A stretch of 64,000 bases of DNA. It comes from Escherichia phage vB_EcoM_Goslar. The stretch lies in the sequence record NC_048170.1; one strand, given 5' to 3'. Below the pieces are notes generated by a model, which was given only the letters and a program-made list of their open reading frames with translations, was not told the origin of the DNA and did not search any database. A program made the position numbers and the translations under genes. Positions 5,235 through 56,051 of this stretch are shown here, one piece after another (positions within the stretch are counted from its first letter, which is position 1; every line of letters starts with the position of its first letter).

Positions 5235-7793
5235 TTACTGCTCTTCACGTTCCAGCAGATACTCGGAAGCGGTAATACCGTTTACCGTACGTACTGCTTT
5301 CAGACGAGTATCATCACTCAGAATCACGGTAACAGATTGCAGACCTTTTACTTTGGTTTCGAAGGTCTTGAACACCTGATCCAGCATACGAGCAATGCTT
5401 GGGTTGGTTGCAGCCGATGCGTGGGTGTAACCGCTTTGGTTCAGCTTCAGAATCTTGGCGTTGGTCGGTACGCGAACAACAACATGCGGACGCATCGCGA
5501 ATACGCTGTGATTGAACCAGTAAGCGTCGTTACTATCTTCGTCGGTAACGATGTCTGGATTAACACGCATATCCTCGACAGCCGCATCCGCCAAACGACG
5601 TTCGATTTCATCGGCGTCCAGAGAGCCATCTTTCTCCAGTTCTGCACGATACTCACTCATGGCAACCAGATGACGTTCACGATTCGCTGCGGATTTTTCG
5701 TGAGCGGCTTTCAGGTAGTCATGCATGTTGTACAGTTCTGCCATGGAAAGACGAATGTTCCACTGACCTTCGCCATCGCGATTGCAGTAGAGACACTTCA
5801 GCATGTTGACCCAGGTATAGTAGCAATTGGCGAATTCATCTTCAATGAACTTCTGGTCCATTTTAAGATCGTGAATCAGCCAACCGGACAGTTCTCCGAT
5901 ATCATCAACGAAGCTAGAGATGGTGGTTTCAGAGAAGTTCTTCGGTACGATACGTTTGATCAGCTTATTGACGTCTTTGGTCATGCTATCGTTCAGGAAA
6001 TGCCAGATACGCAGAGGAATGACATCTCGATACTGTTGCATGATCTGACGATAAGCTTTGATATCGTCGCTACGACCTTTATCAATAGACAACGCATCCA
6101 GGAATTCATGGATTGCATCCAGCTCTTTGTCGGTATAGGTTCCCAGATAGGAATTGACGGTGGCCAGGAATGCTAATGCGTCGTTTTGGTTGACGTCGGT
6201 GTTGGTCTGCTGAATGATCGCCACTGCAGCTTTAGTTTCAGCATCCTCAACGCTTGACGCTGCGATCGCGTCGGTGACGGTAAACAGTTTCATTTCGCGC
6301 TGCTCACCGACAACGATTGGCTCACGCTGAACCGGCTTGTTAAGACTAACGCGAACAACTTCTGCTTGCGCGATACGATCCAGTTTTGCCATTTCCTGCT
6401 CTGCCATACGACGAGCGGTTGGATCTGATTCAAGTTCGATGTATTCCACTTCTTCCTCCGTGAGGGATGTAATGTCAACAATGGTTTCATGAAGAATTCC
6501 GTTTTCGTCGATACGTGCTCGACGAGCGAAGTGCCTGAAGTCATACAACGTCGGCCAACGACTATTAGGTGCAAAGTCTTTGGCTTTCAGACGCATCTGC
6601 ATAAATTCTTCATGTTGAACAACACGACCGTAACGCTTAGCATCTTCGGTCGCATCAATTGGATTAACGGTCTTTGTTGCCGTAGCGGAACGAGCCGTAC
6701 GAACCGGTTCCGGTTTCACCTGCGCCGGTTCAGGTTGAACGGGTTTCTGCTGTCCAGCCTTAACATGCCATTCTGGCTCTTCGTACTGTTCAGCAAATTG
6801 CTCAGCCGCTGCAAAGATATCGTTGATACCACCAATATCTCCTTCAGGATTTGTCGAGTAAATCCGTGGTTGCGGTGCCTCGTAACGCGGCGCTGTAGCA
6901 GCAGGTGCCTCATCAACGATAGGATCATCATCACCGACATCATACAAACGGTTGAACGCACAATCCTTCGAATCAATGTACGATGGTGTTTGTGGTTGGA
7001 CAACCGTAGGCCGAGGTTGTGTGCCGTATCCTGGTGTTGTTGGAGCCATACCACGCATAACTGCTGGGTTAGGTTGGTATTGTGGTTGTGGGTAGGTTCC
7101 ACCATACATGGCGTACGCAGGCTGTTGTGGTTGACCATACCCGTTGCTAACCATCGCACTTGCTTGCGGCCCACGATAAGTCATCCCCATCTGCATCACC
7201 TGCTGCTTCAAACCACGTGACTTCTGCGCGATTTGCGCTAGGCTTCCGCTTTTATTCAGCTGCGTGTACTTATTCGCGGCTTCCGGGTTAATGCGTGATA
7301 ATTCAATCGCGCGATAATATTCCGGGTACTGATTCGGTTCAAAGAGCCACGTTACAAGATGATACAGCGCAACTGTACTCACGGCAGCAGAGACGATCTG
7401 GTCGTCGGACGCGTTCTGTGGCATCGGGTTGATGTAAGAGAACACGTTCCAACAACAGTCTTCAACAAGCGATTCCATCATCATATCGTTATTGGTATAA
7501 CGTGCGACGAACTCGGTTTGTATTTTGTCTTGCTGAGCGAAGTCTTTCAGGACATTAAAGATGGCTTGACGGATTTTGACGATCGTCGCTTCTTGGGTGA
7601 TGAAGTTATAGTTCTGCTGATATGAGGGTTGTTGGTATTGTGGTGGTTGATAGGCGTTATTCGGGTATGCGCCGTACGGCGATTGCTGATACTGTTGCTG
7701 ACGAACCTGTTCAGCCGCATAATTAATCGTGCTCGTATAAGGGTTTTCGCTATAGCCCATTTGTTGATACATGTTGTTACTGCCATTATACAT
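5235..7793 (-). CDS. hypothetical protein (852 aa) with Q/Y/P-rich low-complexity N-terminus
   Basis: ORF track; ATG with AAAGGA upstream; N-terminal about 60 aa dominated by Q, Y, P, N; second QPQY-rich stretch mid-protein. Confidence 0.8.
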   Translation of the reverse strand: MYNGSNNMYQQMGYSENPYTSTINYAAEQVRQQQYQQSPYGAYPNNAYQPPQYQQPSYQQNYNFITQEATIVKIRQAIFNVLKDFAQQDKIQTEFVARYTNNDMMMESLVEDCCWNVFSYINPMPQNASDDQIVSAAVSTVALYHLVTWLFEPNQYPEYYRAIELSRINPEAANKYTQLNKSGSLAQIAQKSRGLKQQVMQMGMTYRGPQASAMVSNGYGQPQQPAYAMYGGTYPQPQYQPNPAVMRGMAPTTPGYGTQPRPTVVQPQTPSYIDSKDCAFNRLYDVGDDDPIVDEAPAATAPRYEAPQPRIYSTNPEGDIGGINDIFAAAEQFAEQYEEPEWHVKAGQQKPVQPEPAQVKPEPVRTARSATATKTVNPIDATEDAKRYGRVVQHEEFMQMRLKAKDFAPNSRWPTLYDFRHFARRARIDENGILHETIVDITSLTEEEVEYIELESDPTARRMAEQEMAKLDRIAQAEVVRVSLNKPVQREPIVVGEQREMKLFTVTDAIAASSVEDAETKAAVAIIQQTNTDVNQNDALAFLATVNSYLGTYTDKELDAIHEFLDALSIDKGRSDDIKAYRQIMQQYRDVIPLRIWHFLNDSMTKDVNKLIKRIVPKNFSETTISSFVDDIGELSGWLIHDLKMDQKFIEDEFANCYYTWVNMLKCLYCNRDGEGQWNIRLSMAELYNMHDYLKAAHEKSAANRERHLVAMSEYRAELEKDGSLDADEIERRLADAAVEDMRVNPDIVTDEDSNDAYWFNHSVFAMRPHVVVRVPTNAKILKLNQSGYTHASAATNPSIARMLDQVFKTFETKVKGLQSVTVILSDDTRLKAVRTVNGITASEYLLEREEQ

Positions 7794-11100: not shown

Positions 11101-11253
11101 CGTCAACCTCCATCAGATTGAAAACTATCACGCATAATACATTTCCCTTTTTCTTGTTCTTATCAAGCCGACAGCCGACGGTTTCAGCATCGTTCCTAGC
11201 GCGAGAACGACCTTACGTGTTGTCTATGCCTTATTCATCGCAGGCGTCTGTCA

Positions 11254-11280
11254 CCTAGGTAATGTAAGCGTCAAATTTTT
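11254..11280. promoter_or_regulatory. copy of conserved intergenic motif cctaggtaatgta (candidate promoter element for gene starting at 11100)
   Basis: Shares ctaggtaatgta core with copies at 17721 and 54693; lies between a hairpin and the next minus-strand gene. Confidence 0.35.
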
Positions 11281-11309
11281 TCTATTCGCAACGATAAACG
11301 GCATAGAAA

Positions 11310-11339
11310 CCTCCCCCAACCCTTACGGGCTGAGGGAGG
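11310..11339. terminator. GC-rich hairpin (cctccc ... gggagg) downstream of major structural gene
   Basis: Inverted repeat with inner ccc-ttac-ggg; about 100 nt 3' of stop at 11439 on minus strand. Confidence 0.5.
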
Positions 11340-11438
11340 CTGACTTATGTATCACGGTGCCGGATGAATGTCCGGTGCAATGAAACCATCTGCAACGTTG
11401 TCATCAAGAATATCATCCAACGAAGCAGCTACGGTAGT

Positions 11439-13661
11439 TCAGTTAGTCTGAACCGGCAGCTTGATGTTTTCAGTGTAGACCTTACGCAGGTTCACAACGT
11501 TAATCAGACCCAGCAGCGGGCAGTTGTTAACGAAGCGGCAGCGCGGCTGAACCATGGTTTCTTTAGAAACCTGACCGTTACGGGTAACCTGAGCAACAGA
11601 TACCAGTTCCGGTACATACAGGAACATACCGAAGGTCAGCGGATCCGGAGAACCCTGGATACCACGAGACAGGGTCACGAAGATCTTATCGCGCAGCATG
11701 ACGTTCGGGTTATCTACAACCACGAAGTTGAAGCTTACACCAACGGTACGGAAATCGCCATCGGTCTGCAGGAACTGCGGGATGTAGTTGTCAGTTGCTA
11801 CTACGCAACGCGGTTTCTCATCAGCGTTGGAAGACAGCAGCTGCAGAGCTGGCTGATAACCAGACTCGGAGTACATGCGGTATGCCATCTCACGAATCAC
11901 GTTCATGATCGCAGCAGACACTTCAGCACGACGTTCTGCAGTGGTGGTACCCTGAACAGATTTCTCCAGGTCCAGATTGATTTCTTCGAACCACGGACGG
12001 ATCAGGTAACGACCGAAACCTTCGATCTGGATGTCACCGAACTGACGGAAGCGAGAGGTCGCAACCGCTTTCAGTGCGTCTTTGTAGCTGAACAGTTTCT
12101 CAACCATCAGGTTGTCGAAACGTGCGTTAGCAGCTTGGATCAGAACGTCCAGGTCAGCAGCGTTTTCTTCCCAATCCAGCGGACGAGGAATGGAGAACGG
12201 AGCCAGCAGGCCGATTGCGTAACGTTCTTGCTTCATGTTGAAGTCAAGGTGCTTACCGCGCTCACGACGGTTGCTGTTGTTACGACGGATACGCAGTTCG
12301 TAACCAACCAGTTTGAAGCTCAGGTCTTCAGCCAGTTGTTTGAACTCTTCGCTCTTACGCGGTTGTTCGATGTTGTCCTGATCAACCAGGCGATACAGTT
12401 CAGCGTTAGCGCCGTTAACACGCAGACCCGCTTTCTCTACGTTGGAAGAACCGTAAACTTCGATCGCCAGCTGAGCAGCGGATTTCGCATCGATGATGTC
12501 CTGCAGCGCTTCGGCTTTCGCACCTTTAACGTCTTTGGTGTTCTCATCAACGAAGATGGAGTGGGTGTCGAACGCCAGGGTCATTTTGCGGAAGTCGCCT
12601 TCCAGGGATTTCTGGAAACCGTTGGTGATCAGACCAGATACGTCGAACGGTACGTAAGAGGTTTTGCTGTGCTTGGTAGATTTGATTTCCACCAGGATTT
12701 TGGTCAGCGTGATCTGAGCATCCAGCGCGTCGGTGTTGTCGCTGTAACCGTTAGCCAGAATGCTGTCGTCTTCAGCGATACCGATCATGTCGATCAGTTT
12801 ATCAACAGCCAGGTAAGACGTTTTATAAGTTACGCCTTTAATTTCGATGTCGCGCGGAGCAACGATAGCTTTGTCAACGAAGTACTGCGCGTTAGCATCG
12901 TCAGCACGATAGATCGGATGCAGATCGGTCACGTCGTTGGACAGAACGTCGTTATACATGAACGCATCCAGCAGCGGACGACGTACCCAATCAGCCGGAG
13001 TACCGTCAGCGTTACGACGCAGGTGGTTGAACACCAGCGGACGACGGAAAGATACGTCGTAACCGATCTGGTTCGGAGCCAGAACGATGGTGTTGTACAG
13101 TTCGTTACCCATGCGGCTCAGACGAGAAGCCTTCACGTTGAACACGACGGAGTACGGCATCATGTCACGCAGTTCTTTCTGGTCGTAGGACAGCTGAACC
13201 AGTTCTTCAGATTCGCAACCGCAGGAATCAGCAGCCATCATGACGAAGTTAGAGCTGTCAACTTCACGACCTGACGGAGTGGTGCTGATGTTCATGGAAC
13301 GTGCTTGTTTAGCATATTCTACCGGGTTGCCATGAGCCAGCATGATCAGTGCTGCTGCACGAGCCTGCTGTGCGTTCATGGTGAACAGCTGTTCTTCAAT
13401 ACGCTGCTTCTCTTCCGGAGTGGTGGTTTCGAAGCCCAGCAAGGTCAGAACCGGTTCTTCGGCTTTACGGATGTCGCTGCTGAAGCTCTTAACATCCATT
13501 TCGTTAACCAGTTTGTCCATGGATTTGAAATCAACCTTAGAAGCAGATTCCATAGACAGGAAGGTGTTCTCCAGACCTTTGTCTGCTGGTTTGCTACCAT
13601 TAGCGGTCAGGAACTGGCGAGTGGCCGCGACCTGTTGGCTAAGAAGGGTTTTATCATTCAT
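11439..13661 (-). CDS. major virion structural protein, putative major capsid protein (740 aa); tail sheath is the alternative
   Basis: ORF track; ATG with AAGGA 8 nt upstream; strongly optimised codon usage (CTG, CGT, GGT, AAC, TTC, GAA) unlike neighbours; size matches phiKZ-type capsid proteins (recalled, not searched); 149-nt leader. Confidence 0.6.
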   Translation of the reverse strand: MNDKTLLSQQVAATRQFLTANGSKPADKGLENTFLSMESASKVDFKSMDKLVNEMDVKSFSSDIRKAEEPVLTLLGFETTTPEEKQRIEEQLFTMNAQQARAAALIMLAHGNPVEYAKQARSMNISTTPSGREVDSSNFVMMAADSCGCESEELVQLSYDQKELRDMMPYSVVFNVKASRLSRMGNELYNTIVLAPNQIGYDVSFRRPLVFNHLRRNADGTPADWVRRPLLDAFMYNDVLSNDVTDLHPIYRADDANAQYFVDKAIVAPRDIEIKGVTYKTSYLAVDKLIDMIGIAEDDSILANGYSDNTDALDAQITLTKILVEIKSTKHSKTSYVPFDVSGLITNGFQKSLEGDFRKMTLAFDTHSIFVDENTKDVKGAKAEALQDIIDAKSAAQLAIEVYGSSNVEKAGLRVNGANAELYRLVDQDNIEQPRKSEEFKQLAEDLSFKLVGYELRIRRNNSNRRERGKHLDFNMKQERYAIGLLAPFSIPRPLDWEENAADLDVLIQAANARFDNLMVEKLFSYKDALKAVATSRFRQFGDIQIEGFGRYLIRPWFEEINLDLEKSVQGTTTAERRAEVSAAIMNVIREMAYRMYSESGYQPALQLLSSNADEKPRCVVATDNYIPQFLQTDGDFRTVGVSFNFVVVDNPNVMLRDKIFVTLSRGIQGSPDPLTFGMFLYVPELVSVAQVTRNGQVSKETMVQPRCRFVNNCPLLGLINVVNLRKVYTENIKLPVQTN

Positions 13662-13810
13662 TGAAAGTATCCTTTACAGAATTAACTTATATAAGTCGGT
13701 CGATAGACCATAGCGTACACGCGTGCATGCGCCACTATAGTATCAGTAAACACTTACCGTTATTGAGGTCGTGATACAACACTAAAAATGCCGCATAACT
13801 TTTCCCTACG

Positions 13811-16487: not shown

Positions 16488-16889
16488 TTAAAACATACGG
16501 TCGTTTTTAGCACGGGCGTCCATTACCAGATCGTAGATGCCTGCGGTTCGTAAGCACTCTTCGTAGTAACGATGCGCGCCTTCATCAGCCATCCACGATA
16601 ACCCTCGGCTATCCGCAACGATAACCAGTTTGTTATTGTTGAACGCACACACCACACGGTAGGTCGCGTTGTTATTCGGATCGCGAGTGATAAGTTCGTA
16701 AACGCCGTTAACAGGTTTACTGAATTCACCGTTTAACGGGATGAGTTCGGTAGTACCTTCAGCAAACGTTACGTTGATCGGTGATGGGTCTTTAGCGATA
16801 ACAGTATATTCCACATTGTGTTCTTTACTGGTCATGATACCGAAGTAAGAACTCACAGGGGAACGCGGTACACTAAGAATATTAAACAT
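16488..16889 (-). CDS. hypothetical protein (133 aa)
   Basis: ORF track; ATG with AAGAGGA upstream. Confidence 0.65.
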   Translation of the reverse strand: MFNILSVPRSPVSSYFGIMTSKEHNVEYTVIAKDPSPINVTFAEGTTELIPLNGEFSKPVNGVYELITRDPNNNATYRVVCAFNNNKLVIVADSRGLSWMADEGAHRYYEECLRTAGIYDLVMDARAKNDRMF

Positions 16890-23116: not shown

Positions 23117-26100
23117 TTACTTGTAGGCACCGCAATGTGCTTTGATGAGGAAAAGCACCGCTTGCATCGGTTTATTGAACTGTTGCCATAACGTCAATGC
23201 AGGATGGAACAACCAATCTTCCAGGCCAAGAACAATACCGTAGTTAACGACATTATTAACATCGTTCTCAACGTTGAGTTCGCTGTCCAGGAATTTATCG
23301 ATTGAACGCAGGGTCTGCATGGCGTTGTCAGCAATAAGCCAAGCTTCATGTGCTTCACGAGCCGCACGCAGCACTGCCTCCAGTTCGCTGATAGTAGCTA
23401 CCGGTAATTCCTCACTGGTGAGGTCGTCAGAAACCGTAAACTGGCGATTGATACCGGTGTAGATCCACTGCATCAGTTTCGCTGCTTCCTCGTTCGGGTT
23501 GTTGCGCGTTGTCGCATAAGTCGCGCTCACCTTCACGATGTGCGTTTCACCAAGATACGCTTTGGACCCAACACCTTTACGATCGCTGTCTTTCCACGGT
23601 TGTACGGTAGCGACCATGAGCTTATCCCATTTCTGAATAGGAATACGCTTCAGACCAACAACCGATCCGGCGGATGTTTCGGACTGGTTGCTCTTCCGCA
23701 CTTCGCTGAGCTCACGATCGATAGCAACGATTAATTCACGCGTCATGTTACCGAGCATTTTGATTTCACCCAACGCAGCGATGAGCTTCTTCACATCGGT
23801 AACAGGTTCACCACCGATGGTAAGATGACGGATGAAACGTTTCAGAATAATCCGTTCCGCTGCTGGATTACCGCGACGCGCTTTGGCCAGCGCTTGCTGT
23901 GTTTCGGCGAACAGCTTATCCCATGGAGCCGTAGCGGCGGTATAGTAACGGTGGTTGGTTTCAATCCAGTTACCGATACGGTTGACCGCGCTCTTAACGG
24001 TATCCATGAATCCTTCCATCGCAATTTCGGTAGCTTCCACGTTACCCTGGAAGTTATCAGGACCGATCTCGCGTGCCGCTACCAGAATACCTTCCACCGC
24101 ACTCACCGCATGACGACCGATAGCCAGATTTCGCTGCGCTTCTTCAGCACGCTCAACGAATTCCACTACCGCAGGATCGTCGACGATTTCCGCCTCGGCA
24201 ACAGCACGCGTACCCGCATCACCTTCCAGCGTTTCGATGGTGACAACCGGATCGTTTTCACCGGCAACATCCTGGTACTCTTCCTGTTTGAGATCGCCGT
24301 TATCAGCCGCTGCGACAGCGGTGAGTATACGGACGGTAACATCACCGAGTTCTTTTGCAGTGAATCCGTAGACGGTGCATGCTGTTGTCGCAAAGTTCAT
24401 CAGTGTGCGTGTGCGTTTAACGATGTAGCCAACATCATAATCGCTACCGCTCTTATCGATGTCACGGATTAACCGTTCAGCTGTCTCCTGAAGTTGTGTA
24501 GCTGCTTTCAGAAGGTCTTCGTCAAACAGTTTCGTTGACGCATCGATCAGCATATCAACGCTAACGTTAGACGGTACAGCATCATCCTGCTGTTTCATGG
24601 CGCTAAGTTCGTCACGGAACTTACGAATACCGTCTAAAGCGGCGTCAGCGGTATGTCCGAACGCAGCCACGCCTGACATTGTTGTTGCCGTCAGCATGTC
24701 TGAATCTGCGTTTGGACTTTCGCCTTCTTTAAGATTCTTCAACTGGTCGAAGAACTTACGAGATGCTTCAGCGATACGTTTACTGTCTTTGACCGCGTTT
24801 ACGATCTTATCGACAGATTTAGCGTCGTTCGCGAGCAGAGTATCCAGTTTATTCCACTCAACGTCAACCTTCTTGGTATCGCTTGGTGGTGGAAGCAGTT
24901 TCATCACTGGCGTTGTACGTTGTTCTTTGGTGAGCTTATCGGCCTTCTCATCGATTTTCTTTTTACTAACACCGAAGAGTTTTCTTAGGCGTGCCACGAT
25001 TGCTTTTAAGAACTTCGCGACCGCTTCGTAAACCGATTTCAGAATCTGTTTAAAGCGACCTGGCTGCTTTTCCCCGTCTTCCAGATTGAGATCGCTATTC
25101 AGTGCGACATCAAGCTGTTTGTACGATTCCATGATGTATTCGTCTTTGATTTCAGGACGAATCTCGAAGCTTTCCATCGGACCTTCAGCCGGACGGAATT
25201 CCATTTTCAGTTCGCCTTGCAGGGTAGGGTCGATAATAGCGATAGCTTCACCCTGACCATCAGCGTTAAAGCGTTCAGCGTAACGAGTACGGCGAACAAT
25301 AACACTCTTATCCCCATCAAGACGACGTACCACCATGGTGCCAGGAATGTACGGTTGTTCTGTTTCAATGACGGTTACATCTGCTTCACCTTCGCCGAGA
25401 ATAACCGATGCGCGCTGTTCAACAACAGGAACATCTAATACGCCACGGGCTTCCAGCTCTTGACGAATTTCGAACGACTCTTGTTTCAGATCTTCATCTT
25501 CTTCGTTTTCGTCGTCTTCATCATCGTCACCTTTGGTGTTTTCATTACCCTCGGTGGTTGTGGTGTTTGTAGCAGCAGCGTCGGCGTCTGTGTTGGTAGG
25601 TTCTTCGGACGCAGGTTCGGTGGTGCCGTCCTCGGCAGGCGTTTCGTCAGCGTTATCGACGTCAACATCACCTTGCAGCTCCGTTTCTTGAGCAACTGCT
25701 TCGGCTTTCTGCTCGCCGGTATTACCATCATTAGCGTCGACAACAGGTTGTTCGTCAGCGACGGTATCTTCAACCTTTTCTACTTTCTCCACGACACGTT
25801 TAATCACGGTGACTTTGATGGGTTCTTCCGTTGTTTTGGTTTCTGGCGTCACCTCGGCTGCCGCAGCCGCTGTTTCAGCAACAGGTTCTGCTTTTTCCGG
25901 TTCGACGACATTACCTTTAACACCTTCGGTGGTTTCTGCAGGTTGCGCTGCCTGTTCGATTTGCGCCGGATTGGTTGGATCGATGGCGTTAGCCGCATCC
26001 TGAATCTTGTTCTTCAGGTTGTCGCGGTCAGCGTTAACGGTCGGGTCGTTGGTCACTTTCGGTGCCGGTGTTTCGGTCGGCGCGTTTGCCGGATACGGGT

Positions 26101-26494
26101 TCTTCGGCTCCTCGCCAGGTGCGGTCGGTACCGCGATCAGAACGAACGGCTGAACGTCGTTACCGTCTTCCATGGTTACGCCGCCGTTGCTTGGCGTGAA
26201 ACGGATTCGCAAACTACCATCGATAGGACGGGTCACAATAACAGCACGTACGACATCCTCGCCGTTTTCATCTGTGCTACGAATCACGCGAACAGCGTCA
26301 TCAACGGTAGCCCCTTCCTCGAGCGTATCTGATTCGATCGTCGCTTCGATGCTGTCTGGCCGTGCCGCTGTAGGTAATGCGATCACTTGCTCTTCTTTAT
26401 CAGTAGAAAGCGTTGCTTTGACTTCGATAGGTGTATCGCCGCTTTCCAGGTTAAGATGCGACTTACGCATCAGATCAGCTAACGATTTTTTCAT
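23117..26494 (-). CDS. large virion protein (1125 aa) with acidic low-complexity region and internal ESF-helix motif
   Basis: ORF track; ATG with AAGAGGAA upstream; E/D/T-rich segment; MESFEIRP...ESYKQLD...KFLKAIV resembles the paralog-family motif. Confidence 0.85.
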   Translation of the reverse strand: MKKSLADLMRKSHLNLESGDTPIEVKATLSTDKEEQVIALPTAARPDSIEATIESDTLEEGATVDDAVRVIRSTDENGEDVVRAVIVTRPIDGSLRIRFTPSNGGVTMEDGNDVQPFVLIAVPTAPGEEPKNPYPANAPTETPAPKVTNDPTVNADRDNLKNKIQDAANAIDPTNPAQIEQAAQPAETTEGVKGNVVEPEKAEPVAETAAAAAEVTPETKTTEEPIKVTVIKRVVEKVEKVEDTVADEQPVVDANDGNTGEQKAEAVAQETELQGDVDVDNADETPAEDGTTEPASEEPTNTDADAAATNTTTTEGNENTKGDDDEDDENEEDEDLKQESFEIRQELEARGVLDVPVVEQRASVILGEGEADVTVIETEQPYIPGTMVVRRLDGDKSVIVRRTRYAERFNADGQGEAIAIIDPTLQGELKMEFRPAEGPMESFEIRPEIKDEYIMESYKQLDVALNSDLNLEDGEKQPGRFKQILKSVYEAVAKFLKAIVARLRKLFGVSKKKIDEKADKLTKEQRTTPVMKLLPPPSDTKKVDVEWNKLDTLLANDAKSVDKIVNAVKDSKRIAEASRKFFDQLKNLKEGESPNADSDMLTATTMSGVAAFGHTADAALDGIRKFRDELSAMKQQDDAVPSNVSVDMLIDASTKLFDEDLLKAATQLQETAERLIRDIDKSGSDYDVGYIVKRTRTLMNFATTACTVYGFTAKELGDVTVRILTAVAAADNGDLKQEEYQDVAGENDPVVTIETLEGDAGTRAVAEAEIVDDPAVVEFVERAEEAQRNLAIGRHAVSAVEGILVAAREIGPDNFQGNVEATEIAMEGFMDTVKSAVNRIGNWIETNHRYYTAATAPWDKLFAETQQALAKARRGNPAAERIILKRFIRHLTIGGEPVTDVKKLIAALGEIKMLGNMTRELIVAIDRELSEVRKSNQSETSAGSVVGLKRIPIQKWDKLMVATVQPWKDSDRKGVGSKAYLGETHIVKVSATYATTRNNPNEEAAKLMQWIYTGINRQFTVSDDLTSEELPVATISELEAVLRAAREAHEAWLIADNAMQTLRSIDKFLDSELNVENDVNNVVNYGIVLGLEDWLFHPALTLWQQFNKPMQAVLFLIKAHCGAYK

Positions 26495-26509
26495 AAAGCG
26501 TTATTCCTC

Positions 26510-27616
26510 TTAAAAGTAATATTTCAGCGCCTCGCGAGAGACATCAAGCATAGCCGCTGTTGAATTCGTAAAGAACTCGGCATAGCCCACAAGCGGCACC
26601 TTGATCCACGCGGTATACGCTGTAAGGTATCGAGAAAGGGCTACCATAGCATCATCAGAAGCAGTAGTAACTGACAACTGACCTTGTTGACGATAAACGT
26701 CGTTAAGTTTTGCTTGTAGATTCCCTGCGATTTCGAGTAACTCGTTGGCGTACTTTTTACGATGGTAACTAACCAGCAAATCAACACCCGTATTTACAGA
26801 CTCGAGTAGAAGACCAACTTGTTCTAATGTTGGCATTGTAACCACCATATCCCGTTCAACGGATGGGACATCCTGGACTTCAAACCGTGCGGATTGAATG
26901 GCGAGGGACTGTTGAATTGATCCAGAACCTGAAGCGGTAACTTGATCGAGTCGTAGCATACGGTTGCCCAGTAACGTCACGTTGACGAGTTTCGATTCGT
27001 TCAGCGTACTGTAGACTTTATGCAATAACGTATACGCATCACGGTTAATCACATCGATTAATGCGGTATCCGTCTGTTTTAAGATAATGTCGAGTGCTCT
27101 ATCTAACGTATTAGCGAACTGCTTAAAATCATCACGGAACGACGAAGACAAGAGATATTCAGCGATCGCTAAATTCTGTTTGTATAACGTATTCCCGGTT
27201 GTGAAATCGAACCCAAAACTGTTCCCATACCGTAGGTGCGGAGCCAACGTCGACGAAGCTTCGAAGCTTTGCGCGATAGGTTTACGACCAACGGCTTTTG
27301 TGTAGTGACGGCGGATGTTGCTGAGTTCGAGCTGTAGTGCGCGACTACGATCGATAAACCGTGCGATAAACGCGGTAATGTTCCGCAACGTTGTCCAGAT
27401 TGCATCGATGATAGCTTTGATGATCTTCATCGCAAGTTGATCGTACGATTCCATTGTGAGGAGATCAGCACTTTCCGTGGTATAACTGGTTGATAGCATA
27501 CCACCCGCTTGCTGATAAATAAGCTGGTGAATTTGTCGTTGCGTTGCTGTCTCTGGCACAGGTAATGTTTTTAACAAGCTTAACGCTTGAATCTGTCCAT
27601 CATTGGTCTGCAGCAT
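26510..27616 (-). CDS. head/internal protein paralog (family member E)
   Basis: ORF track frame; in-frame ATG at 27616 with GAGGAA upstream, overlapping upstream stop by 17 nt; motif ESYDQLAMKIIKAIIDAIW. Confidence 0.75.
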   Translation of the reverse strand: MLQTNDGQIQALSLLKTLPVPETATQRQIHQLIYQQAGGMLSTSYTTESADLLTMESYDQLAMKIIKAIIDAIWTTLRNITAFIARFIDRSRALQLELSNIRRHYTKAVGRKPIAQSFEASSTLAPHLRYGNSFGFDFTTGNTLYKQNLAIAEYLLSSSFRDDFKQFANTLDRALDIILKQTDTALIDVINRDAYTLLHKVYSTLNESKLVNVTLLGNRMLRLDQVTASGSGSIQQSLAIQSARFEVQDVPSVERDMVVTMPTLEQVGLLLESVNTGVDLLVSYHRKKYANELLEIAGNLQAKLNDVYRQQGQLSVTTASDDAMVALSRYLTAYTAWIKVPLVGYAEFFTNSTAAMLDVSREALKYYF

Positions 27617-28901
27617 TGCTGGTTTCCTCAAGTTCGAGATGCGCGTCAAGATAATCATTAAGACCATCGATGACGTCGCAGACAGTTAACAGGAATCGGG
27701 CAAAAGCAACCGCCTGGAAGCCGACGACGTTACGCGCGATACCCACGCGTTGAACGATAGCGGATGCTGCGGTATCGTTATTGCCCATCTGTTGTAGCAA
27801 ACGTTCATACGGTTGAATCCATTCGTCCTGGTCGGCAAGGCTTGCTTCAAGACAACGTTTAAATTCCAACTGTCGTAGCGTAGACCATAACGTACTTAAT
27901 GCGTTGATGATCGCGTTGGTTCCGTCGATAACATCGTTTAACGGTAAGAAACGGAATCCGTCTTTTGCTGATTGGAAAGGTGCGGCTTCCCACACAACGC
28001 TGAACTGCGTTCCTGTTGCGTCTTCGATGTTGTGTAATTTAAGATAGGAAGCACCAACAGGAACGTCAACGACCAGATCGTCTGTTCCGGTAGGTGTTAA
28101 CGGCTTCTCGCATAACGCCTCGTTGATGGCCTCGAGAATATTCTCCCAACAGGCTTCGTTTTCCGCAGCGATACCTTCTTTGTTATCCGCTGATGGTGCT
28201 TTTAGTAGCTGCATTAATAACGGATCAAGTTGACGGTGCCATGCTGCGAGGATTCCTGTGTTCGTTACGATGTTTTCTGCGGTTTGTCGTAAATCAGCAA
28301 TACTGCTTACCGCACCGCCTTTCGGATGGAGATATCGCCAGTTGTAGGGAAAGTTCTCCCAGAATGCGTTATCTTCATCGACGTCGTATTCGGAAATAGT
28401 TTTCAACGCAGCCGCTTTCTTTAATAACGGCTTCACCTGACGAACGAATCGACGATAACAGCGATTGCAGATATCGATCGCATAGCGGTATAATTCGTTC
28501 ATGTAAAGCCATAATGCACGGGTTGCTTCTTTTGCTGTCTTGTCAAAACTTTCCATGTTCAGACTCATCCCGCTGGAAGTTTCCTCTTCCAGACCCTCGA
28601 TGATGTGGTTTGGATCCATCCCCATCCCGGCTGCTGCGGTCGATGCGATATGTTTGATGGTGTTGATATCGCGTTCCTCGACTTCAGCCATGTTTGGGAC
28701 AATATCCAGCCTGAGTTTATTTAATGTTTGAAGGTGTTGTTCACCTTCTTTCATCGCCGTGTTTGTTTCGTCGATTGAGTGAAACTGATTCTCAATATTA
28801 CTGGCATCGAGAATGTTGCCAGCGATACCGAACGATTCTACAGGTTCATCATCAATCCCTTGAAACAACGATGTCATGGGTTGTTGTAACACGTTTTCCA
28901 T
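27600..28901 (-). CDS. head/internal protein paralog (family member C, 433 aa)
   Basis: ORF track; ATG with AGGAG 7 nt upstream; acidic N-terminal region; HIASTAAAGMGM and ESF...ALWLYM motifs shared with neighbours. Confidence 0.8.
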   Translation of the reverse strand: MENVLQQPMTSLFQGIDDEPVESFGIAGNILDASNIENQFHSIDETNTAMKEGEQHLQTLNKLRLDIVPNMAEVEERDINTIKHIASTAAAGMGMDPNHIIEGLEEETSSGMSLNMESFDKTAKEATRALWLYMNELYRYAIDICNRCYRRFVRQVKPLLKKAAALKTISEYDVDEDNAFWENFPYNWRYLHPKGGAVSSIADLRQTAENIVTNTGILAAWHRQLDPLLMQLLKAPSADNKEGIAAENEACWENILEAINEALCEKPLTPTGTDDLVVDVPVGASYLKLHNIEDATGTQFSVVWEAAPFQSAKDGFRFLPLNDVIDGTNAIINALSTLWSTLRQLEFKRCLEASLADQDEWIQPYERLLQQMGNNDTAASAIVQRVGIARNVVGFQAVAFARFLLTVCDVIDGLNDYLDAHLELEETSNAADQ

Positions 28902-29008
28902 TTGGGACTCCTACGTAGGAAAATCTTGGCGGGTGATCATGTCCGCCATTTACCTTCTGAACCGTTGATTCAGAAGTCAAAAGATAACCGGATACCAACG
29001 CCATAAAA

Positions 29009-29040
29009 CCTTCCTCCAACCCGTAAGGGAAGGAGGAAGG
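29009..29040. terminator. GC-rich hairpin ccttcctcc-aa-ccc-GTAA-ggg-aa-ggaggaagg
   Basis: Perfect stems; 3' of stop of gene 29051..30340. Confidence 0.6.
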
Positions 29041-29050
29041 GATATAGTGG

Positions 29051-30340
29051 TTATGCTTTTTCGGTTACAGCATCGAAGTATTTCGCTGCAGCAAATACGG
29101 CATCCGCATATTGACGGTTAGCAACACGGAGGATCTTAGCTGCTAATACCGCACTCAAGAGCGCCATTTCAGAAATGGCGCTTATATAAGGGCGAACGGT
29201 TTCACGATCTGCTTCCGGTAGATTGTCGAGCATACCGTCCCATTTGGTTTTAATTTTCATACCGTTCAGTTTAGCGGTACGTTCGACAGTACTCGTTAAA
29301 CTTTCCGTCTGGTTAAAATACGCAGGGTCAACAATACGAAACGCGTTAAGATACGAAGTCAGTGCGGCTTTCAATTCGTCGTCGTTATTGAAAATGTTCG
29401 CGTTTTCGATACTACCAGTCGCGGTTTCTTCCACTTCGATCTGAATATTCTTCACGAGCGCGCAGGCCTTAATGGTATCTTTCTCAGCCATAAGAGCGTC
29501 AAGACCTTTAACAACATATCGTTTCCCACCGCTTTCTGGTATTTTGAGTCCTTTTAACGCGGGCTTGATGGCGTAAATATAGTCGTCCAGAATATCGGCA
29601 AGTGTCGTCAAATCGGTTAGTTTATTAACTTTCTTGTTAATGTCGTCGGTTTGGAGTAGTAAAAAAGAGGATGCTTGTGTGGATGCCGCTAACTGCTCAA
29701 TATGTTTACGGACCTCCAACGCGTTAACTGTTTTTGCGTTAGGGAACATGCTAATCATATTCCCGGTCGGTTTATTTAGTTGTTTGATGTGACGCTCGCC
29801 TTTATTTACAGCGGTTGCAACATCGGTAATTTTTTTATACGCTACCGCAAGGTTTTTGAAAAGCAGCTGAATCAGTTTACATAACTGTTCAGCCATGTTC
29901 GCAATGATTACCCAAACTGCGTATAGCGCTTGTGCTGCGCGTTCTTTAAAGCCTTCCAGTACGATAGCCTGCCCTTCCACCAAACGATCGTCAGCTTGGA
30001 ACATGTCTTCATCAGACATCCCCAGGTTAGCTGCTGACGTCGAAGCAATCTGGCGGATAAGGGCGATGTCGCTCGCACGTGCTTCAGGGATCGTAGGTGC
30101 GATCATGTACGCGGTATCTTCCAGCGTTGCTGAGGTACGCACCGCAATTTCAGCCAGTTCGCTGGATTCGTCGATCGTCTCGTCGGTGCGTCGAATCACC
30201 AACTCAACTTCGTCCTCTTCAATTTCTGCGTTAGGATCGTTCTGCTCCGCTGGAATTGCCGCAAGAAGATCTTCGGCGCTGAGCAGTGCGAGTTCGAATG
30301 CGTTTTTATTGACGTTATCAAAAAGAGAAATGCGGGCCAT
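29051..30340 (-). CDS. head/internal protein paralog (family member B, 429 aa)
   Basis: ORF track; ATG with AAGGAA upstream; TIPEARASDIALIRQIASTSAANLGM and VLEGFKE motifs aligned with gene 30350..31666. Confidence 0.8.
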   Translation of the reverse strand: MARISLFDNVNKNAFELALLSAEDLLAAIPAEQNDPNAEIEEDEVELVIRRTDETIDESSELAEIAVRTSATLEDTAYMIAPTIPEARASDIALIRQIASTSAANLGMSDEDMFQADDRLVEGQAIVLEGFKERAAQALYAVWVIIANMAEQLCKLIQLLFKNLAVAYKKITDVATAVNKGERHIKQLNKPTGNMISMFPNAKTVNALEVRKHIEQLAASTQASSFLLLQTDDINKKVNKLTDLTTLADILDDYIYAIKPALKGLKIPESGGKRYVVKGLDALMAEKDTIKACALVKNIQIEVEETATGSIENANIFNNDDELKAALTSYLNAFRIVDPAYFNQTESLTSTVERTAKLNGMKIKTKWDGMLDNLPEADRETVRPYISAISEMALLSAVLAAKILRVANRQYADAVFAAAKYFDAVTEKA

Positions 30341-30349
30341 GTTAGTTCC

Positions 30350-31666
30350 TTAACCTTTGGTATAAGCGTTAACGAGAGTGTTGATAAATGAAGTCAGTGC
30401 GCGAAGATACTGGTAAGCGAATTGGTTTTCAATACGGTTCTCTTTACCGCAAAGCAGAATCGCACGCTTAACGAGTTTAGGATAGATCTCGACATACGGT
30501 TGGTAGCTTGCATCAAAATTCTGCTCGTTGAAGCGTTTCATGGTGATTTCCTGGATACGCTCCATGGTGCGAATTTTATTGCGAGAGAATATCTCAGAGA
30601 AAGCACGTCCGCGTTTTGTTACCATCAACAAATCTTTCGCGAACGTCAGTTGTCGAACGCTACGTAATTCGTCAGGTGTTGGCAGGACATACGTTTCTGG
30701 ATCGTTATCCCATTCAACATCTTCAACGATAATATCCAAGTCGAGGTAACGTTTAACAGCATCGATGATGTTGTCTTTTGACGCATCGAATTCTTTCAAG
30801 AAGACTGCGCCGTTGATGTAGCGGATGCGTTTCCCAGAAACTGTTGGGGTGATAACATCAGCACCTTCCACGGAACCGCGATTTTCCAGTGTCGATTTGA
30901 CAGCGTGCAAGAAAGACAGATAATCAACAGGAAGTTTTTCAACCTTATCTAAATGGAAGTCGATGATGTTTAATCCTAACCCATCAATAACTGAATAGCC
31001 GTCCGATTTAAGGAACATCTGATTGAAGGTATCGATGTTGCTTTTCAGCGTGTCTACGCCACCAACGCTGTTACGGTTAGGGAAAAGTGTCCGCCACTCC
31101 GCTTTAAACGCAACCTCTTTATTTTCCTCGTATTTGCCTTTAGGCATTTGTTCGAGGTCTGCAACGGCTTTCTGAAAATTGCGCGTCTCGTCGTAAACAA
31201 GACGGGTAAGCTTCTCGAAGGCTGCTGCCAAGGTCAGGGCAATATCAACAATGATATCCCAGATCTTTTTCATGGCTTTTACAACGGTGTCCTTAAACCC
31301 CTCAACAACCAAAGCTTCTCCAACCTCAACACGATCGGTTGGCGTCAGCAATGCTTCGGAGGGTAGACCCAGAGCAATCGACGCGGATTCTTGAACGTTA
31401 CGAACCAACGCAACATCACTGTAGTTAGCCGATTCGATAGTCGGAGCAACATCAAAACTGATTTCCCGTAATGCAGCAACAGCAGGGAAAGCACGATCAA
31501 GCGCATCTTCATGTTCGTCGATTGCCGCCAAACGTAATTCGACGCCATCGGCATCGATGACTTCAGCGGCAGGCTCCACAGCAAGCGCCTCAGCAACAAT
31601 AGGATCTTTTTCAAACGCCTCAAGGCTGATATCGCCTTGGGTCGCAAATAGCGGTATGTGTACCAT
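30350..31666 (-). CDS. head/internal protein paralog (family member A, about 438 aa)
   Basis: ORF track frame; track start is TTG, ATG at 31666 has GGAG 8 nt upstream; TIESANYSDVALVRNVQESASIALGL and VVEGFKD motifs. Confidence 0.8.
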   Translation of the reverse strand: MVHIPLFATQGDISLEAFEKDPIVAEALAVEPAAEVIDADGVELRLAAIDEHEDALDRAFPAVAALREISFDVAPTIESANYSDVALVRNVQESASIALGLPSEALLTPTDRVEVGEALVVEGFKDTVVKAMKKIWDIIVDIALTLAAAFEKLTRLVYDETRNFQKAVADLEQMPKGKYEENKEVAFKAEWRTLFPNRNSVGGVDTLKSNIDTFNQMFLKSDGYSVIDGLGLNIIDFHLDKVEKLPVDYLSFLHAVKSTLENRGSVEGADVITPTVSGKRIRYINGAVFLKEFDASKDNIIDAVKRYLDLDIIVEDVEWDNDPETYVLPTPDELRSVRQLTFAKDLLMVTKRGRAFSEIFSRNKIRTMERIQEITMKRFNEQNFDASYQPYVEIYPKLVKRAILLCGKENRIENQFAYQYLRALTSFINTLVNAYTKG

Positions 31667-31714
31667 GTGTTGTCTCCAGTAATGATTCAAAAGATAAACC
31701 TGAGCGGCATAGAA

Positions 31715-31746
31715 CCCTCTCCCAACCCGTGAGGGAAGGGAGAGGG
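31715..31746. terminator. GC-rich hairpin ccctctccc-aa-ccc-GTGA-ggg-aa-gggagaggg
   Basis: Perfect stems with GNRA loop; 3' of stop of gene 31769..33091; followed on minus strand by ggttctatgccg. Confidence 0.6.
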
Positions 31747-31768: not shown

Positions 31769-33091
31769 TTACTGCTGTGCTGCGTCAGCCGGTTTCTCAG
31801 CCGCCTGGCCGCCGTACTCTTTCAGCATTTTAGCAACGCCATCCAGGACAGCGTTACCTGCCTGAACACCGTATTTCATCAGACCGGTCTGCGGGTTCAC
31901 GTAGCAGGAACGTGCGTCTTTCAGTGCAGACAGTACAGCTTGAACACGCTGTTTTTCCTGAGCGGAAACTTCGCCTTTCTTAGACAGATCGGCTTCCATA
32001 TCGTCACCGAATTTAACAGCGTCTTTGAAGCCCTGGGATTTCTTACCGATGTTGCCTTTCAGCGCCAGCAGTTTGTCAGCCAGTGCTTCAACACCGCTAA
32101 CCGCAGCAGCCAGCTGATTCAGGGACAGGACGGTAGCTTCAACTTCTTTTGCTTCGCCAGAGCGTTCCCAGGTTACTTTACCATCGTTGGCTTTGAAACC
32201 CCAACCTGCCGGACCAGCAACGTCAGCGATCGCCGGAGCGTTCAGTTTATCAGCGTACTCGGTGTGAGACTTAGCAACAACGGTACCAACGAATTTATCA
32301 GCACGATCGTCAGCAGCCTTCATTGCTTTCTCGAAGGTGTCGGCGATTTTAGTTGCGCCGGTAACCAGATCGTCGCCACCGATGTAGCCTGAAACGCCGC
32401 CACCCAGTTTAACTTTGGTATTTTTAGCAGCGCCTTTACGCTTGCCGATCATTTCTTTCAGTTTAGCGGCACGTGCTTTCAGTTTGGTTGCGCCGTCGAA
32501 GATACGATCCATGAACTTCACGAAGGTTTCCCAGGAAGTTTTCAGGAAGTTCTTGATGGTTGCCCACAGTTTCTGCCACCATTTTTGTTCTTCCAGGAAG
32601 ATCATGTTGGTCGCATCGTAACGGGAAGCGGAACCACCGAAGCTTTCGAAGGACGGCATGGTTTCCGGCAGTTTGAAACCGATAGTACCACACAGACGTT
32701 TCAGATTACGCATGTGTTCCTGAGCGGTTTGTGCAGACATACCACCGTCTTTCAGGTAGCTTTCGGTTGCAACAACGGTTTCCGTCAGTTCATCCATGGC
32801 TTCATCCATGGCTTCTGCGGTTTCGTCGTCTTTTGCAATTTCGATAACAACAGCATCAACCTGCTCGATATCACCACGAACTTCGATAGCCAGTTCGGTT
32901 TCAGCTGCGGTATCTTCAGCGATTTCAGCACGTTCGGTCAGTTCAGCCACAACGGTTTCATCCGCTGGTGCAGCATCAGCTGCCGGTTCTGCTTCAACGG
33001 TTGCCGCTGCATCCGGATCGATCTCAGCAGCCAGTTGAACCAGCTGTGCGTTAGATGGATTTGCGACAAGACGATCAAAAATAGAAGGCAT
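31769..33091 (-). CDS. abundant head/internal protein paralog (family member D, 440 aa), codon-optimised
   Basis: ORF track; ATG with AAGGAAAC 8 nt upstream; highly acidic Ala/Glu/Asp-rich N-terminal 110 aa; codon usage like the 740-aa gene; ESFGG...KLWATIKNF motif. Confidence 0.85.
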   Translation of the reverse strand: MPSIFDRLVANPSNAQLVQLAAEIDPDAAATVEAEPAADAAPADETVVAELTERAEIAEDTAAETELAIEVRGDIEQVDAVVIEIAKDDETAEAMDEAMDELTETVVATESYLKDGGMSAQTAQEHMRNLKRLCGTIGFKLPETMPSFESFGGSASRYDATNMIFLEEQKWWQKLWATIKNFLKTSWETFVKFMDRIFDGATKLKARAAKLKEMIGKRKGAAKNTKVKLGGGVSGYIGGDDLVTGATKIADTFEKAMKAADDRADKFVGTVVAKSHTEYADKLNAPAIADVAGPAGWGFKANDGKVTWERSGEAKEVEATVLSLNQLAAAVSGVEALADKLLALKGNIGKKSQGFKDAVKFGDDMEADLSKKGEVSAQEKQRVQAVLSALKDARSCYVNPQTGLMKYGVQAGNAVLDGVAKMLKEYGGQAAEKPADAAQQ

Positions 33092-33116
33092 AATTTGTTT
33101 CCTTTACAATAAATTG

Positions 33117-33132
33117 CACATTAGCTAATGTG
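33117..33132. promoter_or_regulatory. perfect 16-bp palindrome CACATTAGCTAATGTG upstream of codon-optimised gene
   Basis: Exact inverted repeat 26-41 nt upstream of ATG at 33091; adjacent to hairpin 33135..33159. Confidence 0.4.
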
Positions 33133-33134
33133 GC

Positions 33135-33159
33135 TTAAGTGAACCGTCAGCTCACTTAA
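33135..33159. other. hairpin ttaagtga-N9-tcacttaa overlapping stop codon of gene 33156..33686
   Basis: 8-bp inverted repeat with 9-nt loop; no T-run follows. Confidence 0.4.
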
Positions 33160-45687: not shown

Positions 45688-46124
45688 GCATTCTCTCCTT
45701 GCAGTGCGTTAGCGAAAGCTGTTGCGAGCTGCGCAACCAGTTTCGGATCAACGCCTTCGATAACGTCAGGCAGCCCTGCGGTTTCTTGGTCACGAACAGC
45801 GGAGGCTAATAACAGCATGGTTTCAGGCGCGGTTGGCTCATGCACCATGCGGTAACGCAGGCACCAGAAGTAGCGGGCAACGTCTAACGCATCAGCCAGC
45901 CCAATAACCAGCACCTTGTTCAGTTTATCCAACCCGTCACGGATTTTAGGGAGATGTTCACGAACGAAGATGCTATCCGCAGTCAGATCTTCTTTTTCAG
46001 CGAATACCGGCATGCTGTAACCGGCGATGTAACCTGCGGCAATACTTAACGCGCGGGTCTGTTGTTCGGCTGGGAAGTCACGTACCAGGTCTTTCAGCTG
46101 AACGGCGAAATCAGAAATATTCAT
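45684..46124 (-). CDS. hypothetical protein (146 aa)
   Basis: ORF track; ATG with AAAGGAA upstream; stop overlaps downstream start (ATGA). Confidence 0.65.
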   Translation of the reverse strand: MNISDFAVQLKDLVRDFPAEQQTRALSIAAGYIAGYSMPVFAEKEDLTADSIFVREHLPKIRDGLDKLNKVLVIGLADALDVARYFWCLRYRMVHEPTAPETMLLLASAVRDQETAGLPDVIEGVDPKLVAQLATAFANALQGENA

Positions 46125-55412: not shown

Positions 55413-56051
55413 TTATGCAAAGCGACGCATGTAACCTGCCAGGTAGTTACGTGTATCGAAGTAGGCAATTTCAGGAATTGCGATATTAAGGTCGATAGCA
55501 CGGATTTCAACTTGGCGACGGCTTTCATCATAGATCGCATCCATCAGACGCAGTACTGTCAGGAAAGCCATGCGGGTATGGTAGTCCAGCGGCATGTTAT
55601 CGATACCGCGATACAGATAACGGTTTGCGTTAAATGCCCCTTCGCTGTTATCTTTCCAGATCTTCAGAATATCAGCAAAGGCGGTGCGGAAAACCTCAGG
55701 ATTATCCACATCCAGTAACGCACGGAAAGCAGACATTAAAGACCGCTGATGACGGATCAACGACTGCGGTGTTTGCGGCATGGTTGGACCCATTTCTTCC
55801 GCATATTTCTGGAACGGGGCAACCAGGGTTGCGGCACGAGAAGCCACGATAGAAACAGCAGGCGATTCTTTCACCGCCGGTTTCGCAGGCTTTTCTTCAA
55901 CAACGGTTTCCTTCTTCTCAACAGCGACCGTTTCCGGCTGTGCTACAACGTTGTTGGTCGGAGCAGCAGCCGCACCATTTTCCACGGCGGTCTCTACTGC
56001 TGTAATCTTTTCGTCCATTTGTGCGGAACGTTGGTCTTTATTCTTGCTCAT
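55413..56051 (-). CDS. hypothetical protein (212 aa) with Ala/Val/Glu/Lys-rich N-terminus
   Basis: ORF track; ATG with AAAGGAAA upstream. Confidence 0.7.
   Translation of the reverse strand: MSKNKDQRSAQMDEKITAVETAVENGAAAAPTNNVVAQPETVAVEKKETVVEEKPAKPAVKESPAVSIVASRAATLVAPFQKYAEEMGPTMPQTPQSLIRHQRSLMSAFRALLDVDNPEVFRTAFADILKIWKDNSEGAFNANRYLYRGIDNMPLDYHTRMAFLTVLRLMDAIYDESRRQVEIRAIDLNIAIPEIAYFDTRNYLAGYMRRFA

Follow-up and report, generated by a model that had tools for sequence, protein, structure and literature searches.

The classic single-gene cases of host-preferred codons in phages are T4 gene 23 and T7 gene 10. Phage head and tail genes are richer in host-preferred codons than non-structural genes, and this preference has been read as translational selection (Lucks, Nelson, Kudla & Plotkin 2008, PMC2266997). 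Escherichia phage vB_EcoM_Goslar is a 237-kb nucleus-forming jumbo phage of the Chimalliviridae with 247 genes, for which a cryo-electron microscopy (cryo-EM) study with virion proteomics (Table S4) is available (Basu et al., bioRxiv 10.64898/2026.04.21.720040). The present analysis concerns a stretch of 64,000 nucleotides of its genome (NC_048170.1; ‘the window’), reaching from gp36 to about gp86, and two minus-strand genes within it that encode proteins of 740 and 440 aa. The masses of more than 30 open reading frames (ORFs) of the window match those of Table S4 within about 1 Da and in the same gene order. The 740-aa ORF agrees with gp41 within 1 Da and the 440-aa ORF agrees with gp58 within 0.5 Da; these matches identify the two genes as gp41, which encodes the major capsid protein (MCP), and gp58, which encodes a protein of the PF12699 family.

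An earlier account of the window made from its letters alone (the sequence-only reading) had singled out the two genes by their codon usage and proposed that they encode the most abundant virion proteins. Both genes use the codons of highly expressed host genes to an extent unmatched in the window, and their products are the two most abundant virion proteins encoded there.

Codon usage of gp41 and gp58

Codon statistics were calculated for the 48 ORFs of at least 100 aa in the window. With Escherichia coli weights, the codon adaptation index (CAI) is 0.743 for gp41 and 0.731 for gp58, against a median of 0.306 and a next best value of 0.464. The two genes have an effective number of codons (Nc) of 30.2 and 29.1, respectively, compared with about 50 for the remaining ORFs. 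Resampling from the pooled synonymous usage of the window gives z-scores of +24.8 (gp41) and +17.4 (gp58) for CAI and of −11.1 and −6.5 for Nc. A reference-free principal component analysis (PCA) of relative synonymous codon usage (RSCU) places the two genes alone at +6.3 and +6.4 on the first axis, with all other ORFs lying between −2.1 and +2.7. The RSCU vectors of the two genes correlate at 0.93.

The codons preferred in both genes are CTG, CGT, GGT, AAC, TTC, GAA and CAG. This is the set named in the sequence-only reading as distinguishing the two genes from their neighbours, and CAI, Nc and PCA all bear it out. CTG accounts for 94–97% of the leucine codons in gp41 and gp58 but for only 24% elsewhere in the window. 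Ten codons (GGA, GGG, AGA, AGG, CGA, CGG, ATA, CTA, TTA and ACA) are used in neither gene. The preferred third positions are mixed, with C in TTC, AAC, TAC and ATC, T in GGT, CGT, GCT and GTT, G in CTG, CCG and CAG, and A in GAA and AAA. The G+C content at third positions (GC3) is mildly raised in gp41 (0.58 vs about 0.46, z = 5.6), whereas that of gp58 (0.454, z = 0.4) is no different from the genome average. This makes the bias codon-specific, not compositional. Of the two measures proposed beforehand, CAI flags both genes, but GC3 alone would miss gp58. In both genes, the bias is weaker over the first 50 codons than over the rest (CAI 0.51–0.53 vs 0.7–0.85), which is the usual relaxation at the start of genes.

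Three long ORFs are found on the plus strand, including one of 636 aa opposite the capsid gene (Table 1). TTA, CTA and TCA, the complements of stop codons, together make up one codon of 740 in gp41 and one of 440 in gp58, compared with 3.1% in other genes. Because these codons are nearly absent, the antisense ORFs are a by-product of the codon bias, and they were rejected as genes.

Relation to host codon usage and protein abundance

The scale of the bias was calibrated on genes of E. coli K-12 (locus L015). The mean CAI of 22 ribosomal-protein genes is 0.60 (range 0.45–0.73); fusA has a CAI of 0.74, tufA of 0.82 and the cryptic gsp genes of 0.25. The bias of gp41 and gp58 equals that of host elongation factor G. 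The pooled RSCU of the two phage genes shows a correlation of r = 0.965 with that of ribosomal-protein and elongation-factor genes of E. coli, while the value for the rest of the window is r = 0.66. With empirical weights derived from those E. coli genes, the CAI is 0.78 for gp41 and 0.77 for gp58, with a median of 0.375.

Across the window, CAI correlates with the published virion copy number (Spearman 0.51, p = 4e-4, n = 44), and the correlation persists without gp41 and gp58 (Spearman 0.43, p = 0.004). The two genes with the highest CAI are also the two highest by copy number, so the published proteomics agrees with the proposal that they encode the most abundant virion proteins of the window. 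The tier below them includes gp77, gp66 and gp53. For its part gp77, a protein that decorates the capsid, is present in about 430 copies according to label-free quantification (LFQ), with 60 copies modelled and at least two more per asymmetric unit visible at low contour; for gp66, a protein of the vertex-binding complex, LFQ gives about 1,000 copies and 110 are modelled (Basu et al.).

A further comparison was made outside the window by following a Goslar-like IMG/VR contig to the gp22/gp23 region. The homolog of gp23, a protein present in about 2,144 copies in Goslar, has a CAI of 0.56 and an Nc of 35.7. It ranks third of about 66 genes, clearly under gp41 and gp58. The CAI of gp22 (about 580 copies) is 0.43. 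Codon bias thus partly predicts the abundant out-of-window protein gp23.

Conservation of the bias

Both genes are syntenic in relatives at 45–71% identity, and the bias is found there too. MCP orthologs with 71% and 68% identity have CAI values of 0.68 and 0.61 and stand among neighbours with values of 0.2–0.5; gp58 orthologs with 45% identity reach 0.75 and 0.72. At replaced residues, the CAI is 0.73–0.74 in gp58 orthologs and 0.58–0.61 in MCP orthologs, compared with 0.29–0.36 in control genes. At conserved residues, synonymous differences amount to 30–40% in the orthologs of the two genes vs 50–56% in the controls. The bias is maintained by selection and not inherited.

Translational selection and other explanations

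The bias is very probably due to translational selection, which would favour the codons preferred by the host in the two genes under the greatest demand for translation. The mRNAs of Chimalliviridae are translated in the cytoplasm on host ribosomes, and a tRNA scan of the window found no tRNA genes; selection would therefore be directed to the codon set of the host tRNAs. Selection for fast, cheap and accurate translation would have moved synonymous sites to the codons of abundant E. coli tRNAs. It would have acted most strongly on gp41 and gp58 as the proteins needed in the largest amounts (1,615 × 740 aa and about 2,150 × 440 aa per virion). The bias is graded with demand, gp23, gp77, gp66 and gp53 being intermediate and the low-copy paralogs of gp58 unbiased. 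Three features common to both genes probably raise their output further: the same strong ribosome-binding region, conserved leaders with late TATG-type promoter motifs and a strong downstream hairpin ending the transcription unit.

Several points weigh against this explanation. The CAI weights follow Sharp and Li 1987, with real E. coli genes as validation. The relation to copy number is graded, not tight. Thus, gp59, gp61 and gp64, with 110–350 copies, show less bias than gp38 (CAI 0.40; about 25 copies) or gp45 (CAI 0.44; about 6 copies), and gp23 reaches only 0.56 despite a copy number like that of gp58. The shortfall of gp23 is partly expected, because virion content differs from expression and gp23 is short. 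Virion copy number serves only as a proxy for expression, and the LFQ values carry an error of about ±50% according to their authors (Basu et al.). Finally, the present or published data show the identity of the genes, the bias, its match to the host, its correlation with abundance and its conservation in relatives, whereas the action of selection through translation and a function of the flanking signals are inferred.

Two mutational or historical accounts of the bias were considered. If the two genes had been acquired horizontally from a differently coded genome, they would form compositional islands, and the GC3 of the capsid gene does lie somewhat above that of its neighbours. However, gp58 combines an average GC3 with an Nc of 29, both genes are core structural genes of the Chimalliviridae, and relatives at 45–71% identity share the synteny as well as the bias. 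The mixture of preferred codons ending in C, T, G and A is moreover that of E. coli ribosomal genes (r = 0.965). Horizontal transfer is thus vanishingly improbable and can be regarded as effectively refuted. The bias might also be a by-product of transcription-associated mutation, since these two are presumably transcribed more than any other late genes and the capsid genes of phiKZ and 201phi2-1 carry three stacked promoters. A strand-specific mutational bias would, however, shift third positions in one direction, whereas the set observed is mixed and matched to host tRNAs. The fall of the bias over the first 50 codons is a signature of translation initiation, and the bias is far weaker (CAI 0.44) in the in-frame stretch beyond the gp41 stop codon, which belongs to the same transcript. 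Transcription-associated mutation is, accordingly, very improbable. The mixed preferred set, the average GC3 of gp58 and the conserved synteny fit neither account.

Selection could also have acted chiefly on translational accuracy or on properties of the mRNA, such as stability, export from the phage nucleus or avoidance of host RNases, and not on speed or ribosome economy. In MCP orthologs, conserved residues have a higher CAI than variable ones (0.71 vs 0.61 and 0.63 vs 0.58), which is the classic signature of selection for accuracy. A structure assembled from 1,615 subunits may tolerate missense errors poorly, and Chimalliviridae mRNAs have to exit the phage nucleus. The orthologs of gp58, however, are equally biased without such a difference (0.77 vs 0.74 and 0.72 vs 0.73), and the preferred set is simply the high-expression set of the host. 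It is unlikely that accuracy or mRNA properties were the chief target; this reading is a refinement of translational selection for host-preferred codons and not a true alternative to it.

The products of gp41 and gp58

The gp41 protein matches the Pfam profile PF25620 (PhiKZ_MCP) over positions 2–635 of 635 (E = 5e-218; 725.7 bits, cut-off 27) and PHROG 3231, ‘major head protein’ (E = 3e-164). PHROGs assignments agree with those of Pfam for both genes. Over all 740 residues, gp41 has 100% identity with chains named ‘Major capsid protein’ in PDB entries 11bt, 11fg, 11mk and 11ml; entry 36za is a 583-residue form of the identical protein with residue 158 as its first. Goslar gp41 has an HK97 fold and is present in 1,615 copies in a T = 27 capsid (Basu et al.). 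The suggestion of a phiKZ-like major capsid protein is thereby borne out, and the choice left between an HK97 and a sheath fold is settled for HK97 by the published experimental structure of the identical protein. Density is absent for residues 1–157, the C-terminal arms build a β-barrel at the centre of the hexon, and a C-terminal fusion to green fluorescent protein (GFP) co-localises with capsids (Basu et al.). The long N-terminal region (157 aa) is absent from the mature capsid, being removed on maturation. Within the phage collection searched, the most similar MCP shares 33% identity with gp41, and a look-up of the exact gp41 sequence gave no record.

The gp58 protein matches the Pfam profile PF12699 (phiKZ_IP) over positions 6–385 of 387 (E = 4.8e-23; 82.4 bits, cut-off 27). 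No match to gp58 was found in a PDB sequence search or in a tblastn search among phages. Its gene adjoins that of a gp91-like vertex-binding protein (PF25618) and belongs to an array with gp53–gp57. Of the latter, gp54 and gp57 reach only 21 bits with PF12699, which is below the cut-off of 27, and gp53, gp55 and gp56 have no match in the same scan. In BLASTP, gp55, gp56 and gp57 match one another, and gp58 matches none of them. The published predicted fold, however, is shared by gp53–gp57 and gp58 (Basu et al.); gp58 is counted in the array because of this fold and its own PF12699 match. The sequence-only reading had described gp58 as the member of a paralog array with the longest acidic N-terminus. 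The N-terminus is the most acidic of the array (28 D+E and 4 K+R in the first 100 aa); the ‘paralog array’ itself is only partly apparent from the sequences.

With about 2,150 copies per virion, gp58 is the most numerous protein of the particle and the sole dominant PF12699 member; it is a homolog of PhiKZ gp93 and is injected into the host (Basu et al.). The copy numbers of gp53, gp54, gp55, gp56 and gp57 are about 330, 70, 46, 55 and 52 (Basu et al.), and their CAI values are 0.42, 0.22, 0.29, 0.35 and 0.35, respectively. Codon bias mirrors the dominance of gp58 within the array. The earlier proposal that gp58 is the most abundant internal head protein agrees with these numbers, with one correction of wording. 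An inner body was not seen in Goslar by cryo-EM (Basu et al.), so gp58 is better called a high-copy packaged and injected protein.

Leaders, ribosome-binding regions and hairpins

The positions of the genes and of the sequence elements near them are listed in Table 1.

Table 1. Genes, flanking elements and other features of the window.
Feature	Position	Strand	Remarks
gp41, major capsid protein, 740 aa	11439..13661	-	CAI 0.743; Nc 30.2; PF25620; PDB identity; mass match
gp58, dominant PF12699 protein, 440 aa	31769..33091	-	CAI 0.731; Nc 29.1; GC3 0.454; PF12699; mass match
gp53–gp57, other PF12699-fold array genes	23117..31690	-	ordinary codon usage
gp77, capsid decorator protein	55413..56051	-	CAI 0.464, third in window
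gp66, vertex-binding-complex protein	45684..46124	-	CAI 0.433
Capsid-gene leader, 149 nt	13662..13810	-	intergenic; palindrome ACTTATATAAGT at 13685..13696 and TATG motifs
Ribosome-binding region TGTAAAGGA of gp41	13670..13678	-	8 nt before ATG
Ribosome-binding region TGTAAAGGA of gp58	33100..33108	-	8 nt before ATG
Palindrome ACATTAGCTAATGT	33118..33131	-	just upstream of the gp58 ribosome-binding region, within the stretch 33109..33135; kept in gp58 orthologs at 45% identity
In-frame extension past the gp41 TGA	11352..11438	-	candidate; 28 sense codons TTVAASLDDILDDNVADGFIAPDIHPAP (11355..11438), second TGA at 11352..11354
G+C-rich hairpin 3′ of gp41	11308..11341	-	−29.7 kcal/mol; then TTCTATGCCG at 11299..11308
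Same-family hairpin 3′ of gp58	31715..31746	-	−25.9 kcal/mol; then TTCTATGCCG at 31705..31714
Hairpin + (T)TATGC sites	4840/4883, 11305, 16141, 17773, 23078, 29005, 31711, 39988/40024, 51290, 52362, 54747, 55250/55288, 61443/61479		
Antisense ORF opposite capsid gene, 636 aa	11364..13274	+	rejected as gene
Antisense ORF	31940..32392	+	rejected as gene
Antisense ORF	32585..33112	+	rejected as gene
gp38	5235..7793	-	raised CAI, few virion copies
gp45	16488..16889	-	raised CAI, few virion copies
ORF at the place of gp86, 470 aa	62469..63881	-	54 kDa

The 149-nt leader of the capsid gene and its good Shine–Dalgarno sequence, both noted in the sequence-only reading, are present. The ribosome-binding region followed by 8 nt and ATG occurs in exactly two exact copies in the window, at gp41 and gp58. 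About 90 nt at the 3′ end of the capsid leader, in the stretch 13662..13760 (GATACTATAGTG...CACGCGTGTAC...CCGACTTATATAAGTTAA), hardly vary, palindrome included, in relatives whose MCPs are 68–71% identical; variation of this leader is too low for covariation to be assessed. The late-promoter consensus of phiKZ is 5′-TATG-3′, and transcription starts at its G (Yakunina et al. 2015, PMC4666361); the TATG motifs of the leaders, one of them at 13794..13797, are candidate late-promoter start sites. An Rfam scan of positions 11000–14000 at E ≤ 1 returned nothing; this means that no known riboswitch, leader or selenocysteine insertion sequence (SECIS) element lies near the gp41 TGA.

A hairpin downstream of the 740-aa gene had also been noted beforehand. 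It is present but starts about 98 nt past the stop codon, and it is a generic element, not one specific to this gene. The sequence following it, TTCTATGCCG, has two exact copies in the window, one after the hairpin of each gene. The stem of the gp41 hairpin is preserved by compensatory changes in relatives L001 and L003, and TATGCCG is conserved; the gp58 orthologs of L012 and L014 have a different hairpin, which is followed by TTTTTATGCCG. Near-identical G+C-rich hairpins of the type CCCTCTCCCTTCCC-loop-GGGTTGGGAGAGGG (−23 to −31 kcal/mol) with (T)TATGC are found at about 13 intergenic sites, and several of them are palindromic or bidirectional. A special ‘high-expression cassette’ composed of the hairpin with TTCTATGCCG and of TGTAAAGGA was considered and rejected: the exact 9- and 10-mers are unique to the two genes, but the hairpin with TATGC recurs at about 13 sites and is therefore generic transcription punctuation. 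A simple scan of positions 10500–14500 for sigma-70 promoters and intrinsic terminators called no terminator, because the hairpins have no run of five T; for the same reason they do not qualify as canonical terminators of E. coli. In phiKZ and 201phi2-1, conserved hairpin motifs that act as terminators have been described. By analogy, the hairpin with TATG is likely to be a terminator for the phage RNA polymerase abutting a late promoter.

A candidate read-through extension of gp41

The stop codon of gp41 is TGA, a leaky stop, whereas 37 of the 48 window genes end in TAA, as do gp58, its orthologs and gp23. An in-frame extension of 28 sense codons, none of them for Lys or Arg, and a second TGA follow. 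This arrangement is found in nine of nine sequences of the Goslar clade, and of its four variable sites, three differ only by synonymous changes at the third codon position. In L003, the MCP of which is 68% identical, TGA is likewise followed by an in-frame peptide resembling that of Goslar; the in-frame alignment scores 40 vs 8–22 in the eight other frame pairs and 14.4 ± 3.5 in shuffled controls (p ~0.001), with only two lineages being informative. In the L001 lineage the stop codon is TAA and the extension is missing. Both the PDB chains and gp41 as annotated end at N740, and the database searched in the published proteomics would not have contained the extension. The Goslar cryo-EM paper makes no mention of read-through.

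It is possible, although doubtful, that a small fraction of the 1,615 subunits carry an acidic C-terminal extension produced by TGA read-through and emerging at the hexon centre. The position of the C-terminal arms at the hexon centre and the localisation of the GFP fusion make a C-terminal tail plausible. If present, it would be a minor capsid species of a kind undescribed for jumbo phages and a new feature of Chimalliviridae capsids.

Other genes of the window and related phages

The genes gp38 and gp45, which combine raised CAI with few virion copies, had no match in Pfam or PHROGs. They may encode highly expressed non-virion proteins, e.g., assembly factors. At the place where gene order predicts gp86 (98.6 kDa in Table S4), the window has an ORF of 470 aa (54 kDa), with an in-frame stop codon upstream within the window. 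A split gene, or a difference in gene numbering or between strains, could account for the mismatch. This ORF was kept in the correlation of CAI and copy number, where its effect is negligible.

Megablast with the capsid gene found no nucleotide match in the collections of phage, plasmid or complete E. coli genomes, and a scan of genome contigs found no relative. A 99%-identical relative (L004, positions 4289–6056, corresponding to 16900–17800 of the window) has two additional genes (259 and 300 aa) between the equivalents of gp46 and gp48, which the window is without; this is indel variation inside the Goslar clade. Goslar-like capsid and gp58 proteins (clusters P0001, P0013, P0023 and P0058–P0065) are encoded on contigs of about 237–248 kb in many NCBI isolate assemblies and in metagenomes. 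The isolate assemblies are labelled Escherichia coli, Salmonella enterica (several serovars) and Shigella flexneri. A carrier state, pseudolysogeny or contamination is suggested by their presence there, as is a host range beyond E. coli.

Significance and comparison with described systems

Published work already covers the phage, the two proteins with their copy numbers and the principle that phage structural genes are under translational selection, and the novelty is therefore low. A literature search found no paper joining Goslar with codon usage; explicit codon quantification for this phage is new but unsurprising. The practical side is of more general use. A reading of the sequence alone picked out the two most abundant virion proteins of the window, and, from six genes that have a fold in common, the dominant paralog. 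Codon bias is a cheap predictor of protein abundance, graded down to a few hundred copies, and it also predicts the host, given the match to E. coli ribosomal-protein and elongation-factor genes. It can be used for uncultivated metagenomic jumbo phages, where most virion proteins lack annotation.

As with the pattern described by Lucks et al. 2008, the bias in Goslar was detected with a CAI-type measure, concerns an E. coli host and affects structural genes. In Goslar, however, the effect is concentrated in two genes (three with gp23), reaches the level of elongation factors and sets one paralog apart from five neighbours of the same fold. The gp41 protein resembles the MCP of PhiKZ, gp120 (PF25620; PDB 8Y6V), in its HK97 fold, T = 27 capsid, length of about 740–750 aa and N-terminal region removed on maturation. 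The two proteins share only about 26% identity, and the TGA with a conserved in-frame extension in the Goslar gene has no described counterpart in phiKZ. Likewise, gp58 belongs to the same Pfam family as PhiKZ gp93 and the other PF12699 proteins, lies in a syntenic cluster beside a gp91-like vertex-binding protein and is packaged in high copy and injected. PhiKZ, however, has several PF12699 members at about 100–200 copies each, while Goslar has a single dominant one and no inner body visible by cryo-EM.

Recoding where the capsid gene ends gives phage T7 a minor capsid protein (10B, beside 10A), and UGA read-through gives phage Q-beta its A1 protein. The tail proposed for Goslar gp41 would resemble both in that a minority of subunits is extended at the C-terminus by recoding, at UGA as in Q-beta. 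It differs from them in being a sequence-based proposal and in that one related lineage is without the extension.

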